Origin: a virus
Virus genome (UHGV): UHGV-1333077
Direction: 5' to 3' (one strand)
Length of the DNA: 15,236 bases
This document shows positions 1 through 15,236 of the stretch, one piece after another. The notes under the pieces were generated by a model. It did no database searches and had not been told where the DNA came from. It worked only from the letters and a program-made list of their open reading frames with translations. The position numbers were made by a program, and so were the translations under genes. The first letter of the stretch is position 1; the number at the start of each line of letters is the position of its first letter.

Positions 1-240
1 TAACTGCTGGAACATCAACAGCGCATGCAGAACGTTGCGGCCTATCCTGTCCAGCTTCCAGACCACCAGTTCATCCCCCGGCTGCATAGTGGCGATGAGC
101 CGTTTTAGAACCGGCCGATTCGATTTCCTCCCGCTGGCATGCTCTTCAAAAATTTTCTCACAACCCGCTGACTTGAGCGCCGTTAGTTGCAATTCAGTGT
201 CCTGGTGGTTTGTTGATACTCGGGCATAACCGTAAATCAT
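1..240 (-). CDS. Serine-recombinase DNA invertase (Gin/Pin/Cin/Hin family), N-terminal 80 codons only; the rest of the gene lies beyond the window start
   Basis: Manual minus-strand translation from ATG at 240-238 gives MIYGYARVSTNHQDTELQLTALKSAGCEKIFEEHASGRKSNRPVLKRLIATMQPGDELVVWKLDRIGRNVLHALLMFQQL, which aligns residue-for-residue with the recalled Mu Gin N-terminus (RVST catalytic-serine motif, AGCE.IFE, LVVWKLDR.GR). SD AGGAG (complement of 248-252) lies 7 nt upstream. The + ORF 35..229 in the track is its antisense shadow. Confidence 0.85.
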   Translation of the reverse strand, partial: MIYGYARVSTNHQDTELQLTALKSAGCEKIFEEHASGRKSNRPVLKRLIATMQPGDELVVWKLDRIGRNVLHALLMFQQL

Positions 241-269: not shown

Positions 270-310
270 AACGGCGAAGCATCACCAGATTTTTGATGGT
301 TATAAAAAAG

Positions 311-661
311 GTTGGTTTGGGAGAAGCGGCGAAAAGGGATGTGGGCACAGGAGATAATCAGATACCGGATATGGGAGCATTCGCTTCTGGTTCGGGATGG
401 TTCAGGCTACCAGGTGGATATATTGTTCAGTTTGGCACTTTTTCAGGGAACACGACCCGCATTATCAGTGGACAATTTCCTATACCATTCCCTGATCAGC
501 CGCTTGTTTCAGTCGGTGTTATGTCTGATGCCGTTCAGTCAGACCCGTCGAAACCTGCCCCGCCGGTTTTGTCTGTAAATTTTAAACATATCAGTAATTC
601 AGCGTGGCGGNNNNNNNNNNTGATACCTCACAGCAATACAGATTCAGTTATATTTCGATAG
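311..661 (+). CDS. Alternative side-tail-fibre C-terminal cassette (Sv'), no credible start of its own in this orientation; would fuse to the constant stf 5' part after inversion
   Basis: Open frame begins with VGLGEAAKRD..., the same K-x-GLGE junction as the expressed stf at 2108-2091. The track start (TTG at 293) is not credible. Contains a tail-fibre-like WFRLPGGYIVQFG segment. Interrupted by the N gap at 611-620; stop TAG at 659-661. A tfa-like gene follows 10 nt downstream. Confidence 0.6.
   Translation, partial: VGLGEAAKRDVGTGDNQIPDMGAFASGSGWFRLPGGYIVQFGTFSGNTTRIISGQFPIPFPDQPLVSVGVMSDAVQSDPSKPAPPVLSVNFKHISNSAWRXXXXIPHSNTDSVIFR
312..326 (+). repeat. Invertase crossover-site inverted repeat, invertase-proximal copy (ttggtttgggagaag)
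   Basis: Exact reverse complement of 2093-2107. Embedded in the Sv' frame as tt-ggt-ttg-gga-gaa-g (GLGE). Neighbouring bases give a partial hix/gix-like 26-bp site (TTATAAAAAAGG TT GGTTTGGGAGAA). Confidence 0.7.
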
Positions 662-671
662 GACGGTAGAA

Positions 672-1112
672 ATGCAGAAATATATTTTCAGTGCCGATAA
701 AAATGCGCTTTTCCCTGTGGAGCTTAAAATCGCTTATCAGGAATCCGGCGAATGGCCCGATGATGGAATCGAAATTGACGACACTGTTGCCGCCGAATTT
801 ATGAAGGAAGCACCAGAAGGAAAATACAGAGGTGTCATCGACGGAATGCCTGCATGGATTGATATTCCACCGCCAACTCATGAGGAACAAATTGCCGCAG
901 CCGAATTGGAAAAGCAGCAATTGATTAATCAGGTCAACGAATACATAAACAGTAAGCAATGGCCTGGTAAAGCGGCGATTGGTCGCCTGAAAGGTGAGGA
1001 ACTGGCGCAATATAATTTGTGGCTGGATTATCTGGACACACTGGAACTGGTCGATACTTCCGGTGCGCCAGATATTGAATGGCCTACGCCTCCGGCAGTT
1101 CAGGCCAGATGA
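672..1112 (+). CDS. tfa: Tail fibre assembly protein (Tfa-family chaperone), alternative copy paired with Sv'
   Basis: 146 aa. The C-terminus ...NLWLDYLDTLELVDTSGAPDIEWPTPPAVQAR carries the conserved Tfa motif (lambda Tfa ends ...VLLNRVDTSTAPDIEWPAVPVME, recalled). Its 3' end overlaps the 3' end of the minus-strand tfa by 29 bp. Confidence 0.75.
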   Translation: MQKYIFSADKNALFPVELKIAYQESGEWPDDGIEIDDTVAAEFMKEAPEGKYRGVIDGMPAWIDIPPPTHEEQIAAAELEKQQLINQVNEYINSKQWPGKAAIGRLKGEELAQYNLWLDYLDTLELVDTSGAPDIEWPTPPAVQAR

Positions 1113-1686
1113 CATCCGGCGCGGTGCTGGTATCTGTTNNNNNNNNNNCGTCAATGTAATCCAGCACAGCGTTAAGCCGGGTTGTTTCTGCCTGCGTCAG
1201 TTTACGTCCGGCCCGTAATTTCAGCTGAATCAGACTAATGGAAGCCATTGCAGCATCAATCAGTGACTGGCGTTGGATTTCTGCCGCGTCCACTGCGGCG
1301 CTATATTGTGCCTCAGTATCCGTCACCCATTTCTCACCATCCCATTTATCATATGGTGTTAACGGGGTGATAGTGGTTATATTTTCAGGGTAATCACCCA
1401 GAGCTGTGATTTCTTTCGATTCTCCTGTTTCGGTGCTATAGACGATTTCACCGCGATGGTCTGACACATATTCCCATGAGTTAAAATCCACAGAACGGCA
1501 GATTGCATAACCATCTTTATGTGTAACTGGTGCATCTAAACAAGAACATGCCGGGATACCGACGCCAACCGCAAGATACTCAGTTGATGTGGAAATATAT
1601 TCCCGCGTTTCTCCGTTGTAGTTATAAACGGTAATGAAGCCGGGTTCCGTGGCAATAAATTCACTGTTTAATTTTACCTGTGTCAT
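1084..1686 (-). CDS. tfa: Tail fibre assembly protein (Tfa-family chaperone), copy coupled to the expressed stf
   Basis: 200 aa. C-terminus ...LNAVLDYID[gap]TDTSTAPDVIWPELPEA matches the Tfa motif. Its ATG (1686-1684) overlaps the stf stop TAA (1688-1686) in a TAATG arrangement, indicating translational coupling. Contains the N gap at 1139-1148. Confidence 0.85.
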   Translation of the reverse strand: MTQVKLNSEFIATEPGFITVYNYNGETREYISTSTEYLAVGVGIPACSCLDAPVTHKDGYAICRSVDFNSWEYVSDHRGEIVYSTETGESKEITALGDYPENITTITPLTPYDKWDGEKWVTDTEAQYSAAVDAAEIQRQSLIDAAMASISLIQLKLRAGRKLTQAETTRLNAVLDYIDXXXXTDTSTAPDVIWPELPEA

Positions 1687-2586
1687 TATGCAGCCCTCAC
1701 GATGTAGTTAAATGCAATGTTTCGCGGTCGAACTTTGTGATAAGTTACGCCTTCCGAGGTTTTCGTGGCTTGAACTGTGTGGACTCCATAGGTGGGGTGC
1801 GCTTTCCCTACCTCAGAATCGTCAATACCAATTCCACTGAAGCCGCCCAGCTGAGCGGAAAATCCTGTTGCTTCCTGTGAAGAAAGTAATGCCCTGCCAC
1901 TGTCAACCCCGCGCCCGTCATCCCAGCCACGAATAAACTCACCGCGTAAATCAGGTAAGTTATTTGTTGGATAAGCCTTTGCCAGTTCCGGGTATTCTTC
2001 TGCAGAAAAAGGCGCACCATTGCATTTCAGCCAGCCTGTTGGCGGAGTGGCTGAAGGCCATGGAACAGGCACCCCAACAGGTAATGCTGAGCCTTCTCCC
2101 AAACCAAGTTTTGTGAGAGCGTCTGCGGCATTCGTTGCGCCGGTTCCGCCGTCAGCGATTGCAAGCGCACCATTGCTCCCTTTCTGCGCAAGTTTACCGA
2201 TGCCTGGGATGGTTACGGCGGTGCCGTTGATGGTAACGGTGATGCTCTGGTTTGCTGAGGTGGTGGCGAACGTCTCCCACGCGCCAATATTCTCGTCGTA
2301 CTCTTTGATGAGCTGTGACATAGCCTGTGCCAGGCCGTCGACCGAGATATTGTCTGATACCAGAATGCCGTACTTCTGGCCGCTCAGCGCCGGGGAAGCA
2401 GCTGGAGTAACCGTCATTGACGTGGCGCTGTTTACGGATGAAATCTGGAACAACTGCACCGGGTTAGACATCACGATAATCGTCTGGCCAGCGCGGACCT
2501 GTCTGGCGGGAGCTGTCCAGTTTGTGCCGGAGCCNNNNNNNNNNGGTATTTCCGTTAATAGAGATAGTTCCGGTGCTATAAATCAT
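1686..2586 (-). CDS. stf: Short side tail fibre protein (lambda Stf-like C-terminal receptor-binding/collar region); constant 5' part 2586-2108, invertible 3' part 2107-1686
   Basis: ATG at 2586-2584 with SD AGGAG (complement of 2592-2596). N-terminus MIYSTGTISINGNT, then N gap 2535-2544, then GSGTNWTAPARQVRAGQTIIVMSNP... The gap changes the apparent frame, so the track starts the ORF at 2474. C-terminal ...LGLGEGSALPVGVPVPWPS...LPDLRGEFIRGW...NIAFNYIVRAA parallels lambda Stf ...YLGAGENSAFPAGAPIPWPS...NIAFNYIVRLA (recalled). Confidence 0.8.
2093..2107 (-). repeat. Invertase crossover-site inverted repeat, stf-internal copy (minus-sense ttggtttgggagaag)
   Basis: Plus strand reads cttctcccaaaccaa. 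Lies in the stf frame as (c)tt-ggt-ttg-gga-gaa-g = LGLGE. With neighbouring bases it forms a hix/gix-like imperfect palindrome CTCTCACAAAAC TT GGTTTGGGAGAA. Confidence 0.7.
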
Positions 2587-3026
2587 AACAACTCCTAAAT
2601 TTAGACAACATGAAGCCCGGAGAGGTATATAACCCTCACCAGAAATAATTTCTGAATTGGTTTTTAATACATGTTGGGCAACGCCAGTGTTGGCATAGCT
2701 ATAGTTGTATCAAATGCCATTGACCACCCACCCAAATAATAATTGCCGACTACTTTATTCCTTTCTGCTCTGACATTCCCACCTGTCATTACAATNNNNN
2801 NNNNNNNATATTTCCGTAACCACCAACGTGTCGACAGTTAGCCCCGGTATAAACAATCTGGCAAAATTCATCACCAATATTCAGGTTCGCATTGGCGATA
2901 TTTATTGTCCCATCAAAAATGAATGGCTTCGTGCAAGTAAGAAGACGTTTGCGTTGACGATTGGTTTATTCAATCCATCAACTAAAATACCATGTAAACG
3001 AATTGCCATAACATTTCCCACTTTAT

Positions 3027-3090: not shown

Positions 3091-3324
3091 ATGAAACTCG
3101 CTCTAATTATGCTGCCATTATGTCTGTCCCTCACTGCATGTGGTAATGGTTTAAATACCGGTAAACCAAATTCCGGTGTCATTCCAAAACCTTTGGATCG
3201 AGATGGTAACGGTTCTTTAATTTATGATACCGAAAACCTTCCAATGACGGGGCAGTGGTGTCACGAGATTGATCACGAATACCGACGAATCGGTAGCCCT
3301 TCTAACTGTGTTATAGACTACTAA
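3091..3324 (+). CDS. Small predicted lipoprotein (77 aa), accessory 'moron' gene of unknown function, convergent with J
   Basis: MKLALIMLPLCLSLTAC: signal peptide with lipobox L-T-A-C. SD AGGAG at 3081-3085 with 5-nt spacer. Preceded by a markedly AT-rich region and followed at once by a hairpin terminator. Confidence 0.6.
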   Translation: MKLALIMLPLCLSLTACGNGLNTGKPNSGVIPKPLDRDGNGSLIYDTENLPMTGQWCHEIDHEYRRIGSPSNCVIDY

Positions 3325-3355
3325 ATATTAACCCCTCAAAAGAGGGGTTAATATT
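3325..3355. terminator. Bidirectional stem-loop terminator between the lipoprotein gene (+) and J (-)
   Basis: aatattaacccctc-aaaa-gaggggttaatatt: 14-bp perfect inverted repeat with a 4-nt loop and U-rich 3' arm in both orientations. Sits exactly between the lipoprotein stop (3322-3324) and the J stop (3356-3358). Confidence 0.55.
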
Positions 3356-6300
3356 TTAACCTGTGAATGAACCAGATCCGTGTGATACTATGACAGTAGG
3401 CGAATAAATGGACGCGCCCCTGTTATTTTGAGCGGACACTTTAATACGTACTGTTACGTTTGGACCTGTTATAACAGCAGAATGCATAATAAGTCTCTCC
3501 ACGTCTTGCACAGATGAACCACTCTCATTGCCGTTAATATTGATTAGTCCTGCACCATTACCTTTAACGTTTGCTATAACACAGACGTGTCTTGCGTGCC
3601 CAGAACTGGATGAATCCGTATAAGTTATTACCTTTTCTAAAAGGCCGTCACTAGACCGACTAACGTCAGTTCCGGTGTGCATATTTGCAATGTCCCCGAT
3701 AAAACTTTGGGCTTCCACAGTCCCTTTGAATTTACCGCTTGTTGCTTGTATCTCACCAGTAAATCTACCGCCACTAGCATATACTACACCTCTGACGGTC
3801 ACATTGTTGAATTCAGCATCTCCAGCTTTATTCAACTTCCAACCAGCAGAACCAGCTGCATAGTTGTTGGACTGGATATAGTTACCGATTTTTGCGTTCT
3901 CAATGGTGCCGTCCTGGATGAAGCTGGCCCGGATGAATGTCTGTCCATTCTGGATCACAAACGGCAAAGCCACGCTATTTCCGGCTGCCGTGGTGACGGC
4001 GAAGCGATCAGCCAGGAAGATAACCTGCGACTGCATGCCGGATGGCGTATTCTCCACGCCGATACCCATCCCCGCGGCGTAATACTGCCCGTTGCTGGAG
4101 ACACCAACTTTGATGTTGTACATCGCGCTGAGGTCGCCGTTTACGTTCGCTATAGCCTGAGCGTTGGTTGTGATGGCTGAGGTATGCCCGTTCACCGTCG
4201 CCGTGATGCTGTTTACCTGCGTGGCCATAGCCTGCTGGTAATCGGAGAACGTCTGGTTCAGGCTGTTGATGGATGCCTTGTTNNNNNNNNNNCGTCTGCA
4301 GGCTCAGCAGCGAGCGCGCCGTTGCCTCCCTGTCGTTGACAATCACCTCATCAATACGGTCCAGATTCGCGCTGTTGCCGGCGACCGATGCAGAAAGGGT
4401 TTTACGCGTGGCCACCTGAGCGAGGTTGGCCTGGATTATCGCAATTGCAGAGTTCTTCACCCCGCCCGTCATGCCGTCCATCGACACAGAAATCTCGTCG
4501 ATCTTCACTTCGGCCTGAGCCAGCCCGTCAGCGTTCTCCAGGATGTCTTTCGCCTGCTGCTCGAGTTCGTCGGCATGGTTTTTAATTTCGTCAGCCATGC
4601 CAGCAATTTTTTCGTTGCTGTCCACCGCGTTCTCGATCAGATCTTTGAACGTATCGGAGCCTTTCATGTCCTCCAGGATTGCATCGGTGATATCGGAAAC
4701 ATCGATGCTGGCCTGTCCTCGCACCCATTCTGTGTACCCTGATTCGTTGCCGCTGCGGTCCACCAGCTGAGCGCGGTACCAGAAAATCTGCCCAGCCTTG
4801 AGGCCCATCTGCTGATACTTGCGCTGCGGATAGGGTACGTCTGCCAGCAGCATCGCATCGTCTTCCGTCCCAGTCAGACTGTACTGAATTTCCGTCTTCA
4901 GCGTGTCGTCGGTGTTCGCCGGGAATCCCCAGCTCAGCTCGATACCGAATACCACATTATCGGAAGCGATGAAGCCAACCGGCTTCGGTGGATTGCCCAC
5001 TTTACCCGTCAGCGTTTTCTCTTCTGAATAGCCCCATCCGGATGAAATTTCTGCGGCATTGATTGCGCGCACCCGCACCAGGTAGCGCCCGGCATAAATC
5101 CCCGGGACGTCGAATGACGTGGTGGAGGTGCGCGGCACGTTAACCCAGTTCCCGTCGTTGCGGCGCCATTGCGCTTCATAGGCGATAGCGTTCTGCGCCT
5201 GGTCCCAGCTAACGCGCATCGTTTCGACGCTGATATTTTGCTGCACCACGGAAAACGAGCTGATCACGATGTTCGCAGGCGGCGACTGGTTACCAGGCGG
5301 GATCACGCTCACCGGCCGCTGGTCAATGATGGCTCCGGTATCGATGCGGGCATATTTATCCGGGTCGTGCCATGCGCCGGTGATTGAGAAAGTGCCATCA
5401 CCGTTGTCGGAGACGCTGACAACACGATACTGCTGCGCGTAAAGCTCGTCAGATTCAACCACCCAAACAGCTTCGGCCTGTGGCGTCTCACTGTATGCCG
5501 TGGTGACTGTGACTGATTCCCCGTTCACGGCCTGAATGGTCCTGCTCTGCGACGCTCCGGAGGGAAGGTTGAGAATAAGGCGATCACCTGGTGCTGCATC
5601 AGCTACGCGGTCAAGTTTGATAACGCGACCGTTAACGGCGCTGATGCGGCCGCCCATAACCTTTCCGGAAAGCAGCTCGTCTGCCACGGCGATGATGTAG
5701 CCAGGCTGCGGAATGTTTCCGTCCAGCCCGACATCAAACGAAACAACGCGATCCTTGTTGTTGGTGAGAATGCCCCAGCGCCCCTTTCGGTTCGCTTCTG
5801 ACTGCCTGGTGCAGCCGATGGCTGTCATTTCCAGCTGATTGAAGCCGTATCGCGCTACCAGCGCCTGCTCAAATACCGGCTCCATCGCGTCGGCATAAGC
5901 GTTACCCGGGTCTGACCATGAAACCAGCGCTGTGGTGTAGCGGGTTTTCGTGGTGCTGCTTGAATAGGTGAAGCGACCGCCAACAACGTTGGCGCGCGTG
6001 TAGCTGTAATCAACATCTCGGGGCATATCGGCCAGAGCAACGATCTGATCGCCTCCCCAGTACGTCATGCCACGGAATATGGCCGCAAAATCACGCAGGA
6101 CTGTATAAGCGTCGTTTCGGTCCTGGATGTACACGTTGCAGGTATAACGTGGTTCGGTACCGTTGCCCCCTTTGCCGTCTGGTACCATCTGATCACAATA
6201 CTGGGCAACCTGATAAAGCGTCCATTTATCAATATTCGCAGCGGTCAAACGGTGCCCGAGGCCGAACCGGGCAGAAACAACCAGATCGTAAAAAATCCAC

Positions 6301-7157
6301 GCAGGGTTATCCGTCCATGCCCACTTAAACGCACCGGTCCATGTACCGCTATAAGTGCGGGTTTCAGGGTCGTAGGTATCTGGAACGCGGATAACACGGC
6401 CGCGGGGCTCGCAGGAGATCTGCGGGATAGAGCCGTTAAACTGACTTGAATCGAATTCGATGTAGAGTAGCGCTGTGTTTGGATATCGTAACTTGGCGTC
6501 AATCACCTCGGTGAAGCTCTGCAGCGTCATCGTGTCGCCGATCTTCGCGCTGTTGGCATCAGAGGTAATCTTACGCAGACGTATTGTCCAGGTGCTGCCA
6601 GCTTGCGGTAAATCGATACGGTGGCTGCGCTCATAACCAGACGTCGTTTTGCCGGTCACGCTGGTATTGAGTACCGTCTGNNNNNNNNNNCATGTGCCGC
6701 CGTCCGTCTGCAGGTCAATCGCATAATTGACCGAGTAACCCACCAGATCTCCGTCGTCTTCCTGTTTGAAAAGCGAGGGCCATTTCAGACGCAGACGAAC
6801 TGCTGAAAGCTGCGTATTGGTAAACGTGCGCGTCCAGGCTGTAGCGCTTGATACCTCAGTTCCCACGCTGATTTCGTTTTCGGTACCGGGAATACCCTGA
6901 ATATATTTTTGAGCCTGCGTCCCCGCGCGAAACTCCCACGTCACGCCGCTGAAGTTTTGGGAACCGTCGGCATTCTCCAGCGCCGTTCCGTCCAGGTAGA
7001 TATCTTTGCCGGTTAGCTGCCCTGCGAACTCCCCTTCGCCAAGCGCAACGAGGATTTTTGCCTTCGCTACAGATTGCAGATCATCAGGCTGTTCGGTAGG
7101 AGTTCGTGAACTGGATTTGCCGCCTTTGCGCCCCTTTAATACTTTCTCTGTAGCCAT
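3356..7157 (-). CDS. J: Tail tip / host-specificity protein J (central tail fibre)
   Basis: N-terminal 1049 aa (track ORF 4008..7157) resemble lambda J. The N gap at 4283-4292 shifts the apparent frame; the true C-terminal about 290 aa continue as the track ORF 3356..4228. The gap at 6681-6690 is also inside the gene. Confidence 0.9.
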
Positions 7158-7168
7158 ATCGCGTCCAT

Positions 7169-7192
7169 AAAAAAAGCCACCCGAAGGCGGCT
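7169..7192 (-). terminator. Intrinsic terminator on the minus strand ending 11 nt upstream of the J start codon
   Basis: Minus-sense AGCCGCC-TTCG-GGTGGCT followed by TTTTTTT (7-bp stem with one G-U pair, UUCG tetraloop, U7 tract). Confidence 0.5.
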
Positions 7193-7323
7193 ACTGTTTA
7201 AATATCAGGCTGTTGGTAACAGGAATCCCTGGTTAATGTGTAAGCTCAGCCCGCCAGTGGTAGGCCTCTGGCGTTAACTGACCGAGGGATGGCTGAAGTA
7301 CCCGGGTAAAATGGAGTAATAAG

Positions 7324-7539
7324 ATGATCGAAGAAAAGTTCGTGGATTTTAGATTTACTCTTGACGAAAATATTCCTAGAGAAATCGCTTTAGAAATTGT
7401 GGCTCTAAGACAAGTTACAATGGTATTAACAGCAGCATTGCCAGTAGATACAAGGCAACAAGTTATTGAAATCCTATCAAAGACAAACTCACCACAAATT
7501 CAAGACATCGTCAAAAATATGAAGCTTATTGACGCCTAA
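7324..7539 (+). CDS. Hypothetical small acidic protein (71 aa) in the AT-rich I-J insertion
   Basis: ATG at 7324 with GGAG 7 nt upstream. AT-rich codon composition unlike the flanking tail genes. A plus-strand hairpin terminator candidate follows at 7562-7588. Its 3' end overlaps the minus-strand 49-aa ORF. Confidence 0.4.
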   Translation: MIEEKFVDFRFTLDENIPREIALEIVALRQVTMVLTAALPVDTRQQVIEILSKTNSPQIQDIVKNMKLIDA

Positions 7540-7638
7540 TGTCATTGAAGCATCGTACTCTACGGTCTCATGCGGGACCGTTTCATTAACTTCAGATGTT
7601 TCATTTTCAGTTTTTTCTACTCGTGACTCAAAAGACAT
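7489..7638 (-). CDS. Hypothetical small acidic protein (49 aa), directly downstream of gene I; below the size cutoff of the supplied ORF track
   Basis: Manual translation: MSFESRVEKTENETSEVNETVPHETVEYDASMTLGVNKLHIFDDVLNLW. Strong SD AAGGAG (complement of 7645-7650) with 6-nt spacer, beginning 8 nt after the I stop codon. Overlaps the 3' end of the + ORF 7324..7539, so at most one of the two may be real. Confidence 0.3.
   Translation of the reverse strand: MSFESRVEKTENETSEVNETVPHETVEYDASMTLGVNKLHIFDDVLNLW
7562..7588 (+). terminator. Candidate plus-strand hairpin terminator after ORF 7324..7539
   Basis: acggtctc-atgc-gggaccgt stem (8 bp including one G-U pair) followed by tttcatt. The T tract is imperfect. 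Confidence 0.3.
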
Positions 7639-7658
7639 ACACATCTCCTTAACTTAGC

Positions 7659-8257
7659 TTACTGCTGATCTTCGACATATATCCCGGCAGAAATAATCGC
7701 TCCGCCGATTCGACGCTTACCATAAAGCAGAGGCACTGGGTAGCCTTGCGCTGCAGTGTTGGTTACCCCGCCAAACGCATACGATGNNNNNNNNNNNNNN
7801 NNNNNNNNNNNNNNNNNNNNNNNNNNNNNNNNNNNNNNNNNNNNNATAACATCTGAACTACCCCCCCCAGCGTTATGGACGCACCAGCAGCAAACATCAT
7901 ATTGCTGGCAGCTATACTCAGACCTGGCATCCAGATCGATGCAATCACTAATACTGCGCCCAGGATAGTTTGAATCAAACCGGCTTTTTTACTCCCGATG
8001 ATTACCGGAACAATGCGAATAACCTCGCCGGTAATCGGGAAGCCAAGGTCATCCACACCGATGTTTTTTTTACCCTTAAACACGGAGTATGTGAGCCCAC
8101 GGCGTTGGCTGGAAATCATAAACTGCTCAAATCCAGGAATGGTTTTTGCGAGTGCAACGCCTGCTTCGCTTACGCGGGATATCAGACGGTAGTGAACTTT
8201 GCCAAACGTTTTTCCAAGAACACTGCCTAATTCAATTCGACTCATGACCTCTTGCAT
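7659..8257 (-). CDS. I: Tail assembly protein I
   Basis: N-terminal part resembles lambda I (...IVPVIIGSKKAGLIQTILGAVLVIASIWM...GGVVQML). A 59-N gap (7787-7845) interrupts it. Beyond the gap the lambda-like C-terminus AQGYPVPLLYGKRRIGGAIISAGIYVEDQQ is in another apparent frame and ends at TAA 7659-7661. The track end at 7763 is a gap artefact. Confidence 0.85.
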
Positions 8258-8272
8258 ATAATCCCCCCACGT

Positions 8273-8296
8273 AAAAAAAACCGCCGAAGCGGTTTA
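8273..8296 (-). terminator. Intrinsic terminator for the K-I lipoprotein gene, upstream of I
   Basis: Minus-sense AAACCGC-TTCG-GCGGTTT followed by TTTTTTTT. Located 24-47 nt downstream of the lipoprotein stop. Confidence 0.6.
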
Positions 8297-8319
8297 ATTT
8301 GGTTGATTTATTTAGGTGT

Positions 8320-8715
8320 TTATTTATTAAAATGTTTCTTTTCAATGCTCATTGCTTGATTAAAGAAATTTGTAGCATTAATTACCGCCCTTTCACAATC
8401 CTTCTGCCCATAATGTCGATGGCATTGGAATTCAGCATTTATTGCCGTATCGCCGGACTGTTTAACCTTAGATGCCCGTCCTGCAAGTTGCCTTGTATCA
8501 ATAGGTGGGAATGTTGTTATAAATGTATCGTTAGCTGATTCTACTCTCATTTTTGTTGCAAACTCCAAATGCTGAGGAACCTTCGACCAAAGATAACTAC
8601 ATTCAGCCTCTGATGAACATGTGACAGGCTTAGTATCTAATACCGGCATTGGCCTATTATCAGCACATCCAGCGGTGGCAAGCACCACAAGACCAGAGAA
8701 CAATATTTTTTTCAC
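8320..8715 (-). CDS. Predicted lipoprotein (131 aa), accessory 'moron' gene inserted between tail genes K and I
   Basis: MKKILFSGLVVLATAGC: signal peptide with lipobox-like TAGC. GTG start with GGGAAG-type SD. Four further Cys in the mature part. AT-rich relative to flanking tail genes. Own terminator downstream. Not a lambda gene. Confidence 0.65.
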   Translation of the reverse strand: MKKILFSGLVVLATAGCADNRPMPVLDTKPVTCSSEAECSYLWSKVPQHLEFATKMRVESANDTFITTFPPIDTRQLAGRASKVKQSGDTAINAEFQCHRHYGQKDCERAVINATNFFNQAMSIEKKHFNK

Positions 8716-8802
8716 AATTAAGCTTCCCTTTCATTGAAAATATCAGAGGAATACTAACATGAAGTTATGGAGTGAGTAATTAACAACTTAACCACTATAG
8801 AA

Positions 8803-9513
8803 TTAACAAAATACTTTGTACCGAAGTACTTTCATTGTTCTTTCCTGCCAGTAGCCACCATATGGCACGCGCTGGCTAAGATGACCGTACAAATGATGCA
8901 GTAGCATATTGCCCTCAAGCAGGATCCCCGCGTGATTCCACTTATCGGCCTGGACCTGCATGATGATGAGGTCCCCTTCCTGAGGCGGGCCATCAAACTC
9001 CCTGAATCCGCACTCGTACCAGCACTCCTGATAGAAATTGTCCGGGTAGTCGTTTTCCCACCAGGGATAATCCACCCGGTAATCGTGGAGCTCGATACCG
9101 TGGGTCTGCCGGAAATAGCTCATTACCAGACCCCAGCAATCGAAGTGGCCAAGCACGAACGGACGCTCCAGCAATGGCAGCTCCCCGCGTGGCTGAATGG
9201 TACGTAAATCCCCCTCTGGCCAGCTCACAATATGCCAGGGCAGCAGCGTTGCATCACACTGTGCCTTATCCAGCTCGCTGGCCTGCGTCGTCGCATCAGG
9301 ATGGCTGTGAACAATGGCCACCACCGTCCCCCAGTCTTCTGCCGCTGCGTAATCTTCGGGGGACAGGTGAAAATGTTCAGTCGGCTCTGCTGCGAGATTA
9401 CGACAGGGAAAATAGCGCTCAACCCGGCTTTTCTGTGCCACCACGCCGCAGCACTCGCGCGGATATTCCGCTGCAGCGTGTGCCATGATGGCATCAATGG
9501 TTTTCTGGCGCAT
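8803..9513 (-). CDS. K: Tail assembly / tail tip protein K (MPN/JAB-like HSHP motif plus C-terminal NlpC/P60-like region)
   Basis: Position between L and I. HSHP motif and Cys...His arrangement typical of the gpK family. Probable start is ATG 9513-9511 (SD AGGAG, 5-nt spacer), 1 nt after the L stop; the track's 9549 start is an upstream in-frame extension. Confidence 0.85.
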   Translation of the reverse strand: MRQKTIDAIMAHAAAEYPRECCGVVAQKSRVERYFPCRNLAAEPTEHFHLSPEDYAAAEDWGTVVAIVHSHPDATTQASELDKAQCDATLLPWHIVSWPEGDLRTIQPRGELPLLERPFVLGHFDCWGLVMSYFRQTHGIELHDYRVDYPWWENDYPDNFYQECWYECGFREFDGPPQEGDLIIMQVQADKWNHAGILLEGNMLLHHLYGHLSQRVPYGGYWQERTMKVLRYKVFC

Positions 9514-9514
9514 A

Positions 9515-10279
9515 TCAACTCCTGATAAGAGATGTACCGGGGAAACCACCGAACGGCAGCTCGTTGCTGTATCCGTGCCGGAGCTTGCAGGCCGTCAGCG
9601 TGCCGTTGCATACATCCAGCGAGGGATCGTCAACCGGATTATTGTTTTTGTCGAAATAGCGCGTTCCGGCATAGTCGCAGCCGTCGCCGGTACGATATTT
9701 ATTCCGGATGCACCAGGTACACAGGGAATGAAGCTGTCGCGTCGGGATCATTTGCCCCTGCAGGTCCATCGGGCTGGATAGTGTGAACTCAACAACTTCA
9801 TTGGTTTCACTGCTCTTTGCATCGATGTAGAAAACCTTCAGCTTCTCCTGGGTCGGATCGGCTGTCGGATTGCCTCCGGTGAAGTTTCTCGCATCAAGAT
9901 ACTTACCAAGGGTGTCATGTATCGTCACCTTCGCCTGCAGCATATCGTCGTAAGCCAGGCAAAGCGCGGTGATCGAACTGTCGAGGTTAGCAACCGAAAG
10001 TTTTGGCTGGGCACTACTTCCCGAGGTTGAAGCTTCNNNNNNNNNNATCCCATCAATCTGGCATGGCCACGCTTTATACTCCTCACCCTGCCACCAGATA
10101 GATTTTGCTGGCAGTTTATTTTCATCACCGCCAGCAGCCTCAATCTCTTCCGGGGTATGCGCGATGTTATGTGCGTGGAAGCGGAGTACATCTGACATAC
10201 CGAACGCTGTGCCATCGACAGAAAAAAGCCGGACTTCATTGCCCGGCTCGAGTTTTTGATAATCAGCATTAAGACTCAT
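9515..10279 (-). CDS. L: Minor tail protein L
   Basis: 254 aa with the Cys-rich C-terminal region typical of gpL. ATGA overlap with the M stop. Contains the N gap at 10037-10046. Confidence 0.9.
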   Translation of the reverse strand: MSLNADYQKLEPGNEVRLFSVDGTAFGMSDVLRFHAHNIAHTPEEIEAAGGDENKLPAKSIWWQGEEYKAWPCQIDGXXXXEASTSGSSAQPKLSVANLDSSITALCLAYDDMLQAKVTIHDTLGKYLDARNFTGGNPTADPTQEKLKVFYIDAKSSETNEVVEFTLSSPMDLQGQMIPTRQLHSLCTWCIRNKYRTGDGCDYAGTRYFDKNNNPVDDPSLDVCNGTLTACKLRHGYSNELPFGGFPGTSLIRS

Positions 10280-10623
10280 GGTGCAAATGCCTGTTCAAAC
10301 GTTGCGGTTACGGTTATCACTTTTACGTTTTTAACCACCTTTTTGAGCGTGTCAGCCTCGACACGCCACAGCGCGGTATCGCCGAAAGGCGGTGTGAAAA
10401 TAAACGACTTCACTTTATGCCGCCGAAGGAAAGCGTGAATTTCATTCGCTGTAGTCGGATCCCCTGAGAAGGAAAATTCATAGGTGCGAATCTCATCATT
10501 CAGGCCGGAGCCGCTCACCTGTGCGTACCCGTCGCCGAACTGAACCTTCCTGACTGTGTCTTTGCTTCCCTCGGTGGGCTGGCTGGAAACCTTAATGCCC
10601 CAGGGGAATGTTTCTATCGTCAT
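10276..10623 (-). CDS. M: Minor tail protein M
   Basis: 115 aa. VRKVQFGDGYAQ...FTPPFGD parallels lambda M (VRKVRFGDGYSQ...WTPPYEW, recalled). Sits between H and L. Confidence 0.9.
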   Translation of the reverse strand: MTIETFPWGIKVSSQPTEGSKDTVRKVQFGDGYAQVSGSGLNDEIRTYEFSFSGDPTTANEIHAFLRRHKVKSFIFTPPFGDTALWRVEADTLKKVVKNVKVITVTATFEQAFAP

Positions 10624-10628
10624 AACTG

Positions 10629-13145
10629 TTACCTGCGATTGGTCGCATTCCAGATAAGCCCACCGGGCTGGATTGCCCTGGCGATACCCTCGTTGACAGA
10701 TTTGTTAATCACCTGCTGATACGCCTTACCCAGCCTGTCTCCGTCGTTTTGCTGCTGTGCGTTACCGGAAGCATTCTCGACCGTCACCGGCGCGTACACG
10801 CTCACCCCGAAAGGTGCTGCAGCGGGACCTGTACCACCGCCCCCGACATACCCTCCCGTGGCATAGCCTTTCATCATCCGGTAAAGATTGCCGACGCCGA
10901 TCCGGCTGGTAGCCTCTTTGGTGAAAACAAATTCGCCACGGTGAACGACACCTGCGGGTTCATATTTCCCGCCTGAACCGGTATAACCGCCACCTGCAAA
11001 TCCCAGCGCGGTTGATGCTGAATCCACTAAGCCTACCATCGCCTGTTTCAGCAGGATCTGTGTCAGCATGGAGAGCGTGGAGCGGGTGAAGTCAGCCCAG
11101 TCAGCCTTTCCGCGCGTCAGCATGTCAGCCATATTTTGCCCGATGCCATCAAACGCACTGGTGGCAGCCGACTTCATCTGGCCATAAGCATCTGAAGCAG
11201 AATCAACATAATCTGCCCATGCGGATTTGGCTCCGGACTGCCAGTCGTCCCGCAGCTTATCCTGCTCGGCGTAATACGCCTGCAGCGCCTGCAGCTCATT
11301 CTGATAACCAGCATCGTTCTCCGAACCACCACCATTTTTCCAGCCCTGAAGAAGCTGGGCCTCTTCATTGCGACGTTGTGCTGCACGACTGCTCATACCA
11401 GCACTTTCCGCAAGGGCTCGGGTTTTCTCGCCGATCTGCGTGACGTATTTTTGGGACGTATCCTGCAGGCGATTAAGCCGCTCCTGCGCCACTATCTGAT
11501 CGCCGAGCTTCGCATTCAGCTCCGCACGGGAAAGCACCTCACTTTTACTGGCCAGCAGGGATTTTTCCTCAGCAGAAAGCGTTCGGGTCTTCGCGGCCTC
11601 TTCCAGAACCGTAAAGCGGGACTGCTGACGCCACAGCTCCTGACGCTGCTGGCTGATGGTGTCATTGATGCTCTTATGCTCCTGCAGGGTGCGCAGCTGT
11701 GTCTGTAGCTCCAGCGTCTGGGCACTGGCCGTATCGGTGGCACGGGCACCTGCGGGGGTTCTGATTGCCGGGGTCTTCTTCGGCTTTTTAAGGGTGTCTT
11801 CGTACTCTTTTTTCGCGGCAGCCAGGTTGATGTTGTAGTCAGCCTGGAGGATCCGCCCCTCTTTCAGCGCCTTGTTGAGCTCGCTCTGCCTGGCCGTGTA
11901 TTTCTCCAGTGCCGTCTGCGTTTTGGCATAGTTTGCCTGTGCCTGCGCAGCATACTTCTGGCGATCCGATTCCGCAGCCGCTTCGCGCGATGCATTCTCT
12001 TCGTTCGCCCTGGCAATTCCCGCCTGCTGCTGCGCCATATCCAGCGCAAGCCTGGCCGTTTCGCGGTCATTCCAGAATCGGGCGCGAGCCTCATCATTGA
12101 CATATCGGTCACCTTTACGCAGGTTCCAGATTTCATCAGCTTTTTTGAACGCGGCTTCGGCTTTTGCCACCATCTCCTGCGCGGTGTCAGGTCGGCCAAT
12201 ATCGAGGGCTGCATCCCACATCGACTTGAAGGCGCGCTTCAGGGAGTCCGCTGAAGACTCTATCGTCCCCATATTGTCGCGGATGGCTTTGGTCTGATCG
12301 TTGAATCCGGCTGTAGCCGCCTCGTTAGCCGCCTGCAGTGCGCCAGCCTCATCACCGGCACGCTGCAGCTGCGCCACATGGGCAATCTGTTCTGCGGTAA
12401 CGTTATGGAACTGCTGGGCCATCGCGATCAGGCCCGATGTCGGGTCAGTTGCGAGCTTGCCGTAGGCTGCAGCGACTTTCTCCACCGGCACGCCGGAGGC
12501 ATCAGTAAACCGCGCCACCGCCTGGCTCATTTCATCAAAGCGCGAGCCAGTACGCACACCTGCATTGATAAGCTCGGTCAGGGCTTCACTGGTCTGGTTG
12601 AACGTTAGCCCCGCTGCCTGTCCGTTCCGCGCCAGTGCCAGCATGCGGTCAGCTGTCAGTCCGGCTGTGTTCCCCGACAGTACCAGCGTTTTGTTGAAAT
12701 CAGACAGAGTGGAAGAGCCCTGGTACCAGGCATAGAACAACGCGCCCGTTGCAACGGACAATGCACCAATGCCGACCATCAACGGGGAAATCGTCCCCAG
12801 CAACGCCCGGAATGTCGGAATGATCCCGCCAAAGGAGTCCTTAACCTGACCGCCCTGCTGAAGCAGAATCAGCCAGGGGTTCTGCCCACCCGCCAGCTGC
12901 GTGGCCACGTCAGTAAACTGCGCCGGGAGCATACGCATCGCTGCGTTATACTGACCCACTGAAATACCGGCCTTACGCGCGGCGTTCTCCTGGCGGCTGA
13001 AGGACTGCTGGATACGTAACGCTTCATCGTTTGCCGTATTGCCGGTCTGTTTTAATTCTTTTTTGACGTAGCTGAGCTGCTCGTTGAATTTTGTCGAGTT
13101 AACGTCAAGGTTAACGACCAGATCACCGACTGCCGTCTGGGCCAT
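10629..13145 (-). CDS. H: Tail tape measure protein H
   Basis: 838 aa. Long stretches match recalled lambda H nearly exactly (GISVGQYNAAMRMLPAQFTDVATQLAGGQNPWLILLQQGGQVKDSFGG...; C-terminal GGKYEPAGVVHRGEFVFTKEATSRIGVGNLYRMMKGYATGGYVG). Confidence 0.95.
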   Translation of the reverse strand: MAQTAVGDLVVNLDVNSTKFNEQLSYVKKELKQTGNTANDEALRIQQSFSRQENAARKAGISVGQYNAAMRMLPAQFTDVATQLAGGQNPWLILLQQGGQVKDSFGGIIPTFRALLGTISPLMVGIGALSVATGALFYAWYQGSSTLSDFNKTLVLSGNTAGLTADRMLALARNGQAAGLTFNQTSEALTELINAGVRTGSRFDEMSQAVARFTDASGVPVEKVAAAYGKLATDPTSGLIAMAQQFHNVTAEQIAHVAQLQRAGDEAGALQAANEAATAGFNDQTKAIRDNMGTIESSADSLKRAFKSMWDAALDIGRPDTAQEMVAKAEAAFKKADEIWNLRKGDRYVNDEARARFWNDRETARLALDMAQQQAGIARANEENASREAAAESDRQKYAAQAQANYAKTQTALEKYTARQSELNKALKEGRILQADYNINLAAAKKEYEDTLKKPKKTPAIRTPAGARATDTASAQTLELQTQLRTLQEHKSINDTISQQRQELWRQQSRFTVLEEAAKTRTLSAEEKSLLASKSEVLSRAELNAKLGDQIVAQERLNRLQDTSQKYVTQIGEKTRALAESAGMSSRAAQRRNEEAQLLQGWKNGGGSENDAGYQNELQALQAYYAEQDKLRDDWQSGAKSAWADYVDSASDAYGQMKSAATSAFDGIGQNMADMLTRGKADWADFTRSTLSMLTQILLKQAMVGLVDSASTALGFAGGGYTGSGGKYEPAGVVHRGEFVFTKEATSRIGVGNLYRMMKGYATGGYVGGGGTGPAAAPFGVSVYAPVTVENASGNAQQQNDGDRLGKAYQQVINKSVNEGIARAIQPGGLIWNATNRR

Positions 13146-13443
13146 AGCGCACGCCTCCTGAAATACCTGCAGCCTTCGCCATCAGCGTATCGTCATCCGG
13201 ATCATCGATGTCGATGGCTTCCGGTGCAGAGGAAAGAATGCTGAAACTGTCCGGGGTTAACTCCGGATCGGCAAAAAACAGGGTTGAGATGGTGTAGAGC
13301 AAGCCGGAGAAATGTGCGTCCAGCTGCGCATCATGAAAGTAATTGTCCTGGTAGAAGATTTTCCAGTCGCCGTACTCCGTAGAGGACATGCCAGCAAGCA
13401 TGGCACGCCAGTCCGGGCGACCGAACTCACGCGCCAGTTTCAT
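13123..13443 (-). CDS. T: Tail assembly chaperone T, in the -1 frame relative to G (expected to be expressed as a G-T fusion)
   Basis: The -1 frame is open from the slippery site into this ORF (...GKVLASELKFAMKLAREFGRPDW...). Position between G and H as in lambda. Confidence 0.85.
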   Translation of the reverse strand: MKLAREFGRPDWRAMLAGMSSTEYGDWKIFYQDNYFHDAQLDAHFSGLLYTISTLFFADPELTPDSFSILSSAPEAIDIDDPDDDTLMAKAAGISGGVRYGPDGSR

Positions 13444-13451
13444 GGCAAATT

Positions 13452-13878
13452 TCAGCTCACTGGCGAGGACTTTTCCGCAGTAACGGGTTCAGCGGGATCA
13501 TTACGTTCTTCACCGGATGAAGTCGGTTCTTCAATGACAGGCGCAATCATCCCGGACAGGAGTTTCACCTTATATTCCGCTTCGGCAACCAGTTCGGTCG
13601 GCCATGACTGCATGACCTCATCCTGAATCTTTGCCACTTCCGCCGCCGCATTTTCTCCCTGGGAGCCTTTCAGTTCGTGGCCGTGCCAGAGTGACATCGC
13701 CACGAGGAACGCCCCACTTTTTANNNNNNNNNNNNNNNNNNGCCGCCTGAAAATCGCCAGCTTCAACTGCCTCAAGTTGTTTCAGGTATTCGAGGTATTC
13801 AATACGCTGCAGCGCCGACAGCTGGAACAATGTGACGCTGCTGCCGTTACTTTCAAGCAGCTCGCTCTTTAGAAACAT
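13452..13878 (-). CDS. G: Tail assembly chaperone G
   Basis: MFLKSELLESNGSSVTLFQLSALQRIEYLEYL... and ...GAFLVAMSLWHGHE...DPAEPVTAEKSSPVS parallel lambda G (MFLKTESFEHNGVTVTLSELSALQRIEHL...; ...GAFLVAMSLWHNH...AGPAEPVSAGKCSTVS, recalled). The N gap at 13724-13741 splits it into two apparent ORFs in the track. Confidence 0.85.
13470..13476 (-). promoter_or_regulatory. Putative -1 programmed ribosomal frameshift heptamer GGAAAAG near the 3' end of G
   Basis: Minus-sense ...ACT GCG GAA AAG TCC... The -1 frame from here reads GGA AAA GTC ... straight into T. Lambda uses GGGAAAG at the equivalent place (established knowledge); this heptamer differs at position 3. Confidence 0.5.
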
Positions 13879-13894
13879 AATTACTCCGGGGGAA

Positions 13895-13910
13895 CGGGGC
13901 TTTCGCCCCG
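13895..13910 (-). promoter_or_regulatory. GC-rich hairpin with GAAA tetraloop in the V-G intergenic region
   Basis: Plus cggggc-tttc-gccccg (minus-sense CGGGGC-GAAA-GCCCCG). No U tract follows, so it is not a terminator; it lies just upstream of the G ribosome-binding site. Confidence 0.3.
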
Positions 13911-13914
13911 GTTA

Positions 13915-14652
13915 TCAGGAAACAGTGACTTTGCAGATCGCCACAAAGTTACCGTCATTGCTCATTACGATGATCTCGACGGTGCCTGCCGCCACGCCGG
14001 TAACAGTCAGGGTATTGCCGCTGACGGTGACCGTTGCTTTTGACGGATCAGAACTGGCTACGCGGAAAGACTTATCTGAAGCACTTGCTGGCAGGACAGA
14101 AACAACCAGTTGCACAGTTTCACCGACCGCAACAGCTGCAGTGGATTTATCCAGGCTGATCCCCGTAACGGCAATCGGCGCGGTACCACTGTCTTCGGCC
14201 AGCGATGGTTTGCCATTGTTGGTGATTTTTGCCGTGCGGGTCATGACCTCTTTGGACGTAATGGTCTTGCCGAGACTGCTCACCCAGCCCTTAAACACAT
14301 CGACAACACCATTCGGATATTTGATTTTATACCCCTTCACGGTGCCTTCATCGAACCAGTTCACCAGGTCCTGCTGACCGGAATCCTCCGGCATCCATGC
14401 GAGCGTCAGGTTTGTTTCACCGGCTGATTTCTGCCCCTGCATCGTTGATGTCCAGTCGGCATTCTCATCATCGATGTAGGTGTCATCTTCCGATTCAGCT
14501 GTCAGTTCTCCGGGCTGCAGGTCTTTAATCTTTGCCAGGCGCAGCCAGTCAACGTCTGAAAGCGGATTGGCGTATGGATCACCAGTTCCGGTGTAAACCC
14601 AGAGGGTGGTACCAGCACCTTTTGTTGGTGCCAGCGGGTTTGGTGTGGCCAT
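13915..14652 (-). CDS. V: Major tail protein V (with C-terminal Ig-like domain)
   Basis: 245 aa, closely parallel to recalled lambda V ([49 protein letters not shown]...GQKSAG.T..TLAWMP...; C-terminal DKSFR...KATV.VSG.T.TV.GVAAG). Confidence 0.95.
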
Positions 14653-14659
14653 AGGGTCC

Positions 14660-15058
14660 TCACATGTCGTAAGTAATGGAATATTTCAGGTCGGCAGAAC
14701 TCCACAGCGCCATATCGTCATCGCGCTGGTAGTCATAGCCCTGCTGAACCATTGTGGTGATAAGAGATTCAAGCCCCGGAACCTCTGCGAGAACCGGATA
14801 CACTCTCGTCTCCATCCAGTCATCCAGATCAGAATCAGGTACCTGAGCCTCAAGAAAGACTTCGATATGCAGAATGGCCTGCCAGCTATCGGCGTCCAGT
14901 TCTTCCCCTGTGTATTCCGCATCTGTCAGGTAGACGGCAACAGCGGGAAAATCACCCTCTTCGAGCACTGCAGGTCTGCCGTCAAAATAAATGACATCAG
15001 TACCAATCGCGCTTTCCAGCGCGTCAATAATCACCTTGCGAATATCGCTGTGTTTCAT
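14660..15058 (-). CDS. U: Tail terminator protein U
   Basis: 132 aa. [15 protein letters not shown]...[54 protein letters not shown]...GYDY.RDDD..LWSSADL.Y.ITY.M matches lambda U almost throughout (recalled). Confidence 0.95.
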
Positions 15059-15236
15059 CGTGTCAGAATTAACCTGAGTTGGTTGGTAAGGGATGCCCGG
15101 AGCTCTTTGGGCATATCTGACTCCATGAGCTTCGGCAGTTCTTCTTTAAATGCCGTAGTTAATGGAGCTGCCAGCGGGATGCTGACCACTTCAATGGGGT
15201 AACGAGGTTTTGAAGTCCGCCTCATGACATGCCAGC
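15055..15236 (-). CDS. Z: C-terminal fragment (about 59 codons) of the gene upstream of U, by position the lambda Z-like tail completion protein; 5' end beyond the window
   Basis: Open minus-strand frame ...[58 protein letters not shown]. Its stop TGA overlaps the U start (ATGA). Assignment is by synteny only; I cannot recall the lambda Z sequence to confirm. Confidence 0.6.
   Translation of the reverse strand, partial: WHVMRRTSKPRYPIEVVSIPLAAPLTTAFKEELPKLMESDMPKELRASLTNQLRLILTR

Follow-up and report, generated by a model that had tools for sequence, protein, structure and literature searches.

Introduction

DNA segments that swap the tip of a tail fibre by flipping between two orientations have been known since the 1980s. 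In the P segment of e14 in E. coli K-12 (pinE, stfP/ycfK, tfaP, tfaE, stfE), a shaft-tip gene and its tfa are followed by a convergent tfa, a second tip and the invertase, the StfP tip being of the Gp53-like_C family and the stfE tip of the Collar family. The gp53-like nature of the e14 cassette has been published previously, and the e14 repeats are the sites that were used experimentally (PMC12529663). In the Mu G and P1 C segments (gin/cin, S/S′, U/U′), which are larger at 3-4.2 kb, alternative fibre C-termini that are each served by a chaperone are likewise flipped by a serine invertase, with the crossover lying inside the fibre gene. The tips of Mu carry Gp34_trimer / Phage_fiber_2 and gp37_C domains, and its U and U′ have common N-terminal parts and a divergent C-terminus. 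HK97 and lambda, in contrast, have one tip and one chaperone, without an invertase. A further class of tips, a jellyroll, is found in the R-type pyocin fibre foot and in gp53 of Acinetobacter phage AP22 (PDB 6CXB, 6CL6, 4MTM).

Here, we analyzed a 15,236-nt stretch of DNA (the window), a gapped metagenome scaffold whose gaps were closed from other assemblies, and found a Pin-type invertible segment at positions 300-2119, where the side-tail-fibre gene stf ends. The prophage is of a gut E. coli type with a lambda/HK97-type siphovirus tail backbone, and the surrounding lambda-like tail module is complete except for scaffold gaps. The locus is very probably a switch that works by site-specific inversion, as the e14 P segment does (Hin/Gin/Cin/Pin family), and it is carried by a lambda/HK97-like siphovirus prophage.

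Results

Layout of the invertible segment and its invertase

The segment comprises two tip cassettes with their convergent chaperone genes, bounded by two crossover sites and neighboured by the shaft of stf on one side and by a serine invertase on the other (Table 1). The invertase gene continues past the start of the window, and its C-terminal HTH lies outside. In the visible part, the catalytic-serine motif YARVST was found, and identities amounted to 45/80 with PinE (56%) and 42/80 with Gin (52%). The same part was identical at 80/80 positions to the full-length recombinases (183-185 aa) of E. coli KMi029 and SZQ1.

Table 1. Features of the invertible segment and its neighbours in the window.
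Feature	Position	Strand	Assignment or detail
Serine DNA invertase, Hin/Gin/Cin/Pin family, 5′ part (first 80 codons)	1..240	-	Pfam Resolvase PF00239, E 4.6e-24
Invertase-proximal crossover site	300..326		core repeat 312-326; presumed central dinucleotide 312-313
Silent tip cassette Sv′, 114 aa + stop	326..669	+	Gp53-like_C PF21882, lectin-type jellyroll
tfa for silent tip, 146 aa, TfaP-like (Tfa146)	672..1112	+	Pfam Caudo_TAP, E 7.4e-33; PHROG 188
tfa for expressed tip, 200 aa, TfaE / HK97 Tfa-like (Tfa200)	1084..1686	-	Pfam Caudo_TAP, E 2.5e-30
Expressed tip cassette Sv, 135 aa + stop	1686..2093	-	Pfam Collar PF07484
Distal crossover site, inside stf	2093..2119		core repeat 2093-2107; presumed central dinucleotide 2106-2107
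Constant shaft part Sc of HK97-type side tail fibre stf	2108..2586	-	ATG 2586 behind AGGAG

Crossover sites

A 15-nt core, TTGGTTTGGGAGAAG, is present exactly twice, in inverted orientation and perfectly identical, against a chance expectation of 0.02. The segment is delimited by the arms of an inverted repeat (307-326 and 2093-2112), which show 90% complementarity across 20 nt. When compared with the published e14 repeats, the proximal core matched 5′-TTGGTTTGGGAGAAGG at 15/16 positions, while the sequence at 2092-2107 (CCTTCTCCCAAACCAA) equalled the second repeat at 16/16 positions (PMC12529663). The distal site falls in the stf codons for LGLGE, and the proximal site is found immediately outside the invertase gene.

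The expressed cassette carries a Collar tip

In the present orientation Sc and Sv form one ORF. The N-terminus of Sc, MIYSTGTISINGNT, matches HK97 Stf, to which the stf ORF is 73% identical overall, and the N run at 2535-2544 was found by gap audit to stand for 6 nt. The ORF 1686..2474 (minus strand) has a C-terminus that reads ...LPDLRGEFIRGWDDGRG...VRPRNIAFNYIVRAA, in which the sequence-only reading had recognized a lambda-Stf-type collar motif. This recognition was borne out by three matches: to Pfam Collar PF07484 (E 2.8e-15, 56.5 bits at a cut-off of 24), to lambda Stf orf314 (43% over 90 aa, E 2.5e-18, with the NIAFNYIVR motif at the C-terminus), and to the T4 gp37 tip 2XGF (E 2.4e-14), to which collar and C-terminal strand both align. 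Within Sv, a conserved Collar domain (aa 1-72) is followed by a hypervariable insert of ~50 aa and the C-terminal strand VRPRNIAFNYIVRAA (alignment A2), and the nearest database cluster is merely 77-80% identical. AlphaFold2, run on Sv with a 40-sequence alignment, gave no usable model (pLDDT 42), and it was not used for a fold search; the fold assignment therefore rests on the sequence matches to solved structures.

The silent cassette is intact and encodes a Gp53-like tip

Sv′ has its start at 326, past the shared GLGE, and its sequence is AAKRDVGTGDNQIPDMGAFASGSGWFRLPGGYIVQFG...; it is preceded by a short in-frame leader, MVIKKVGLGE (ATG 296), with which it forms an ORF of 124 aa. The N run that interrupts it at 611-620 (10 N) stands for 11 nt (GCGGCAACCAG), as found in six independent contigs that match its 80-nt flanks at 100% identity; the contig L010 is identical to the window over 610+518 nt. 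The closed frame runs ...NSAWRAATSDTSQQYRFSYISIGR to the C-terminus ...YRFSYISIGR, with the stop codon at 667-669. An end of the cassette at 661, as had been read from the scaffold letters, was thus wrong, the tail ‘...IPHSNTDSVIFR*’ being a frameshift artefact. A disruption of the frame once the gap was closed, which had been left open as a possibility, was not found: the frame, closed with the identical independent contigs, is intact to 669, which ruled out a degraded silent cassette. The estimate that the silent tip is about 20 residues shorter held, since 114 and 135 aa follow the crossover (21 fewer). The gap-closed sequence matched Gp53-like_C PF21882 (KMi029 homologue, E 4.6e-9), which the exact sequence (P0001) also carries; both a profile match over the gathering score and a jellyroll fold were found for Sv′.

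The two tips are unrelated and their chaperones share only a C-terminal module

No similarity between Sv and Sv′ was detected by BLASTP (E 0.26), and the profile-profile comparison of the variable parts alone (hhalign) gave a probability of 1.2%. A first hhalign run on the full alignments had returned 99%, and this value did not reflect true similarity of the tips, because the shaft and the GLGE region are common to both alignments; it fell to 1.2% after trimming. The structural classes represented by 2XGF and 4MTM have been described as having no common sequence or tertiary similarity (PMC6363177). Together with the two different Pfam families (Collar and Gp53-like_C), these results support the earlier proposal that the tips are unrelated. 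Homology searches of Sv and Sv′ against Mu S, Mu S′, P1 Sv and P1 Sv′ gave no BLASTP match at E <0.1, and a cassette set of the Mu/P1 type was rejected by BLASTP and by the differing Pfam domains.

A separate chaperone gene stands downstream of each cassette, and these genes converge with a 29-nt overlap. Tfa146, whose gene starts 2 nt past the Sv′ stop, is 55% identical to e14 TfaP, whereas Tfa200, the ATG of which overlaps the stf stop (TAATG, 1684-1688), is 85% identical to e14 TfaE, 87% to HK97 Tfa and 35% to lambda Tfa. It had been noted from the letters that the chaperones differ in length and have only the C-terminal Tfa part in common. BLASTP similarity was indeed limited to the C-terminal 80 aa (33% identity, E 6e-11), and PHROG 3792, of 78 positions, was the only module common to both, as predicted from the published modular design of Tfa proteins.

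Both orientation states occur among related loci

Inversion of the segment in silico yielded an in-frame Sc-Sv′ fusion that ends at the natural Sv′ stop. A genome-contig scan with Sv′ gave no confirmed relative, and a scan of viral contigs (IMG/VR, Sv′ identity at least 77%) was used in its place. Among the 57 loci obtained, Sv′ was fused to a long shaft ORF in 24 and stood behind a short leader beside the invertase in 33, and identical shaft types appeared in both states (P2-H, 99%; e14, 96-100%). In one locus (L064), the invertase is of the window type (80/80) and the leader MVIKKVGLGE is identical, but the Collar cassette is parked and Sv′ is expressed. Both orientations were observed in other backbones with the cassette pair, crossover site and invertase type of the window. 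The Sv′ and Tfa146 module is also 100% identical in a P2-like prophage (L007), where it occupies the expressed position. The Collar/Gp53-like pairing is not obligatory, as some related loci combine two gp53-like tips.

Comparison with described systems

The locus shares with the e14 P segment the gene order, the crossover core sequence, the domain pair and the 29-nt convergent overlap of the tfa genes, and its core-to-core size is about 1797 bp compared with 1829 bp in e14. It differs from e14 in four respects: an HK97-like Stf shaft in a lambda/HK97-type siphovirus tail is found here and a baseplate-type context there; the invertase has just 56% identity with PinE across the 80 visible residues; as an allele, the gp53-like tip is distant from StfP (~23-28% identity); and the Collar tip, 57% identical to stfE overall, has a different and shorter hypervariable insert. 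Mechanism and layout are shared with Mu G and P1 C, but the cassettes are non-homologous, with no BLASTP match of Sv′ to the S/S′ of Mu or P1, and the chaperones have a common C-terminus only. The shaft and Collar tip, together with Tfa200, resemble the HK97 Stf/Tfa pair at the identities given above, and the collar region resembles that of lambda Stf (43%), but a second tip, a second tfa and an invertase are present here. Sv′ belongs to the same jellyroll class as the pyocin foot and AP22 gp53, which have other shafts and other hosts; their putative sugar-binding loops are not conserved, and the ligand is therefore not transferable to Sv′. The locus adds one more, ordinary copy to a known kind of switch, and the Collar/Gp53-like pair already exists in e14 of E. 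coli K-12.

Discussion

By the mechanism we propose, the adjoining invertase would recombine the two inverted crossover sites and flip the segment. In the present orientation, Sc is fused to the Collar tip (lambda Stf / T4 gp37 type), followed by the TfaE-like chaperone; in the flipped orientation, the same Sc would be in frame with the Gp53-like_C lectin-jellyroll tip, followed by the TfaP-like chaperone. Each chaperone combines a tip-specific N-terminal part with a common C-terminal trimerisation module. Inversion probably occurs in this prophage and both fibres are presumably assembled, so that the phage population would carry one or the other of two receptor-binding tips. The receptors of the two tips are likely to differ, and the two receptor specificities that the sequence-only reading had proposed can reasonably be expected from the precedent of Mu G, P1 C and carotovoricin. 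Analogy suggests LPS, a porin or both as candidate ligands of the Collar tip, and a sugar of the LPS core as that of the lectin-like tip.

We considered whether the module might no longer flip, with the Collar-tipped fibre alone being made and the silent cassette drifting. The invertase is cut at the window edge and may be defective, and many Pin-associated fibre loci of E. coli, such as e14, reside in cryptic prophages. In addition, the junction of an HK97-type shaft with Sv′ was absent from 5,426 complete E. coli genomes (at least 80% query coverage); this search was uninformative, since just ~3 of these genomes have this prophage type. A locked state is nevertheless improbable, because the two crossover cores are perfect copies, Sv′ and the genes of Tfa146 and Tfa200 are intact, the visible invertase is identical to full-length genes, and the tail module is complete apart from scaffold gaps. 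The 100% identity of the silent module to copies in expressed position elsewhere also argues against drift.

A functional switch could also serve another end. The 124-aa ORF at 296-669 (ATG 296 to TAG 669) might be expressed in the lysogen and, as a free protein of lectin type, mask surface receptors and block the adsorption of other phages, in which case one inversion would toggle both virion host range and host defence. In the inverted state of e14, the gp53-like cassette comes to lie behind the leader of stfE beside pinE, and the resulting chimera StfE2 lowered T2 adsorption (PMC12529663). The window is in the equivalent state, with an in-frame ATG at 296, and a homologous 124-aa ORF is annotated by RefSeq. 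Against this, Sv′ is only ~23-28% identical to the e14 StfP tip, ATG 296 has no Shine-Dalgarno sequence nearby, the region shows no excess of promoter-like matches (7, versus 5.6 in shuffles), the StfE2 result was based on plasmid over-expression and docking, and a tip without shaft and chaperone may not fold; we regard this role as improbable. It is also conceivable that the two folds address one receptor class, such as a common LPS core, and that inversion brings antigenic or assembly variation instead of a change in host range, given that LPS can be bound both by Collar-type fibres (T4 gp12, gp37) and by gp53-like feet. For pyocin feet, LPS binding has been reported (PMC6363177). This explanation appears very improbable, as inversion alters host range in all the invertible fibre systems that have been studied (Mu G, P1 C, carotovoricin), and the hypervariable insert of Sv and the variable loops in relatives of Sv′ point to diversifying selection on specificity.

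For a host-range switch of the e14 kind, which we prefer, no new principle is added, because the mechanism, the domain families and even the domain pair have already been described. The comparison can be of use in annotating prophage host range and in fibre engineering, and it indicates that the e14-type tip-plus-chaperone module travels as a unit among backbones of the siphovirus, P2-like and e14-like kinds. Provided that the switch is functional, a single temperate phage of the HK97 kind would show either a Collar or a pyocin-foot-type tip, and a wider range of gut Enterobacteriaceae would be open to adsorption.

Two unrelated fibre tips and their chaperones

The expressed tip (Sv), the final 135 codons of the side tail fibre gene stf, carries the motifs LPDLRGEFIRGW and NIAFNYIVRAA and matches Pfam Collar. 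It aligned with lambda Stf orf314 (43% over 90 aa, E 2.5e-18), with HK97 Stf and e14 stfE (57% each) and with the solved T4 gp37 tip 2XGF (E 2.4e-14, collar and C-terminal strand both aligned), which bears out the assignment of a lambda-Stf-type collar ending to 2092-1686 (minus) in the sequence-only reading. In an alignment of 40 relatives, the collar (aa 1-72) and the C-terminal strand were almost invariant and enclosed a hypervariable insert of 50-80 aa, which in Sv is probably the receptor-contacting part. The allele is at most 80% identical to every 90%-cluster representative returned by protein search, and its AlphaFold2 model (pLDDT 42) was left out of the fold evidence.

The silent tip (Sv') matches Pfam Gp53-like_C. 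Its AlphaFold2 model is an all-beta sandwich (domain pLDDT 71-86) with the R1/R2 pyocin fibre foot domains as best PDB matches (Foldseek, E 4e-5); the foot domain is a lectin jellyroll for which LPS core binding has been proposed (Salazar et al., PMC6363177). ORFs made of such a leader plus a tip cassette go in RefSeq and elsewhere under names that include 'phage tail protein', 'gp53-like domain-containing protein' and even 'integrase'.

The silent frame crosses one of the N runs that mark scaffold gaps (611-620, 1139-1148, 2535-2544, 2796-2807, 4283-4292, 6681-6690, 7787-7845, 10037-10046 and 13724-13741). By reading true gap lengths from contigs with identical or near-identical flanks, we found that N-run length is generally unfaithful, 10 N standing for 11, 10 or 6 nt and 12 N for 13 nt, which accounts for the frame breaks apparent in stf and J; ORFs across gaps (Sv', stf, J, I, L) look frameshifted or split, yet are probably intact. 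Six independent contigs that match the window at 100% identity over 80-nt flanks have 11 nt (GCGGCAACCAG) in place of the 10-N run 611-620, and one of them, L010, shows identity over 610+518 nt. The closed frame runs uninterrupted to ...NSAWRAATSDTSQQYRFSYISIGR and a stop at 667-669, 2 nt ahead of the next gene's ATG. Thus, of the silent cassette first placed at 327-661, the start stands (326, directly after the GLGE codons common to both tips), while the end at 661 was a gap artefact; the closed tip of 114 aa has 21 residues fewer than the expressed one, close to the 20 estimated before.

Comparison of Sv with Sv' by BLASTP found nothing (E 0.26), and hhalign with both alignments trimmed to the variable part returned a probability of 1.2%. 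A high first profile-profile score was rejected as a sign of tip kinship, being confined to the common shaft up to GLGE. The structures 2XGF and 4MTM are stated to resemble each other in neither sequence nor tertiary structure (Salazar et al., PMC6363177). The claim that the two C-terminal domains, Collar and Gp53-like_C, are unrelated is therefore supported by the profiles of both tips, the structure model of Sv' and the sequence matches of Sv to solved structures. Nevertheless, unrelated folds are no rule of the module family, since two related loci, L030 (~5579, minus) and L059 (~2125, minus), pair an Sv'-type tip with a second, divergent gp53-like tip; a Collar partner, detected in most loci reaching far enough, is common, not obligatory.

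The tail-fibre chaperones of the expressed and silent tips, Tfa200 and Tfa146, resemble each other only in their last 80 aa (33% identity), a region that in both is the 78-position PHROG 3792 module, while their best PHROG families differ. The earlier statement that proteins of 200 and 146 aa share only the C-terminal Tfa motif thus holds. This pattern agrees with the modular architecture published for Tfa, outlined in PMC9608196 from North et al. 2019, in which fibre binding falls to a variable N-terminal domain and trimerisation is driven by a conserved helical domain at the C-terminus. Convergent overlap of the two tfa genes spans 29 nt (1084-1112), exactly as in e14 tfaP/tfaE, and the overlap of the stf stop with the tfa200 start (TAATG, 1684-1688) suggests translational coupling.

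Features of the tip region and its neighbourhood
Feature	Position	Strand	Remarks
Leader MVIKKVGLGE	296-325		just outside the invertase-proximal crossover site; in-frame ATG 296
Tfa146	672-1112	plus	55% identity to e14 TfaP
Tfa200	1686..1084	minus	85-87% identity to e14 TfaE and HK97 Tfa
Sv	2093..1689	minus	stop 1686-1688
Sv hypervariable insert	within 1689-1900	minus	~50 aa, residues ~73-121; from alignment of relatives
Broken reading frames	2600-3010	minus	between stf and lipoprotein gene
Lipoprotein gene, 77 aa	3091-3324	plus	signal peptide + Cys; between J and stf, on the opposite strand; PHROG 12984 'lipoprotein', E 1e-56
Hairpin	3323-3356		perfect 15-bp inverted repeat after the 77-aa lipoprotein gene
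Lambda-like siphovirus tail module	3356-15236	minus	includes U, tail tube, tape measure, M, L, K, J
Predicted lipoprotein gene, 131 aa	8320-8715	minus	inserted between tail genes K (8803-9549) and I (7763-8257)

A probable e14-type inversion switch

The 15-nt core TTGGTTTGGGAGAAG occurs in exactly two inverted copies, at 312-326 and 2093-2107 (0.02 expected), and the same repeats are the experimental inversion sites of the 1797-bp P segment of the cryptic prophage e14 (PMC12529663). The product of the neighbouring invertase gene, of the Resolvase family, starts MIYGYARVSTNHQD...; over the visible 80 aa its identity is 56% with PinE, 52% with Gin and complete with full-length recombinases encoded by E. 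coli genomes. In-silico inversion joined the shaft and the silent tip in frame. The region is best explained as a Pin switch of the e14 type that would control the side tail fibre in an HK97/lambda-like temperate phage.

Both orientations were found among relatives. In 24 of the 57 IMG/VR loci with Sv' at no less than 77% identity, it was fused to a long shaft ORF that was followed by the partner tip and the invertase; in 33, it lay beside the invertase, preceded by a leader no longer than 62 codons, and the shaft was fused to the partner tip. Shaft types common to both states were P2-H (99% identity) and e14 (96-100%). The clearest flipped case is L064, with a window-type invertase (80/80 identical), at 5389-5877 (minus) a Collar tip on a leader identical to the one that carries the gp53-like tip in the window, and Sv' on the fibre. 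Copies of the Sv'+Tfa146 module with 100% identity also occur elsewhere: a P2-like prophage (L007) has it in the expressed state, and at the tonB-yciI e14-like site (L008, L009) it is silent. The module thus passes from one backbone to another. For the window's HK97-type shaft, a search of complete E. coli genomes found no inverted state.

As a non-exclusive alternative, compatible with the switch, the leader-plus-tip product might block phage adsorption by analogy with its e14 counterpart StfE2, which is reported to block T2 adsorption (Kirigo et al., PMC12529663). The window's orientation is equivalent to the StfE2 state and offers an in-frame ATG; however, this ATG has no nearby Shine-Dalgarno sequence, the promoter signal is not above chance, and Sv' is only a distant relative of the StfP tip.

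Genomic setting and known systems

A matching scaffold comes from a human-gut metagenome (ENA ERZ28624274, QINJ12-1 scaffold_934), and a few complete E. coli genomes carry prophage regions ~93% identical to the window. The gene order downstream of J is small lipoprotein gene, DUF6453 remnant, stf-tfa pair of HK97 type, second tfa, fragment of a fibre tip and first part of a serine recombinase gene. The counterpart of the remnant in two related E. coli prophages, SZQ1 and MS 115-1, is annotated as a pseudogene for a 'DUF6453 family protein'. The 77-aa lipoprotein, which had no match in Pfam or NCBIfam, may be a moron or superinfection-exclusion candidate; the sole match of the predicted 131-aa lipoprotein was PHROG 16082, which has no assigned function there.

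Fibre-tip inversion is a mechanism familiar since the 1980s from Mu G, P1 C and e14 P. In Mu and P1 the mechanism is as in the window, but the proposed search for homology of Sv' to their cassettes found the tips not homologous. The e14 element of E. coli K-12 has the same layout (stfP, tfaP, convergent tfaE, stfE, pinE) and the same domain pair (StfP tip, Gp53-like_C, E 8e-16; stfE, Collar, E 1e-15), and a P2-like prophage of strain EC23HZZ201 has the Collar/Gp53-like pair in the opposite state. The gp53-like nature of the e14 cassette has already been published (PMC12529663). Specific to the window are the HK97-type backbone and the divergent Collar-tip allele, the mechanism and domain pair having been known before.

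Flipping would exchange a Collar tip for a lectin-like tip of the gp53/pyocin-foot kind and back, and each tip has its cognate chaperone. OmpC and/or LPS serve as receptors for lambda Stf and T4 gp37, and the LPS core for pyocin feet; by analogy with these fibres, the receptors of the two tips likely differ.
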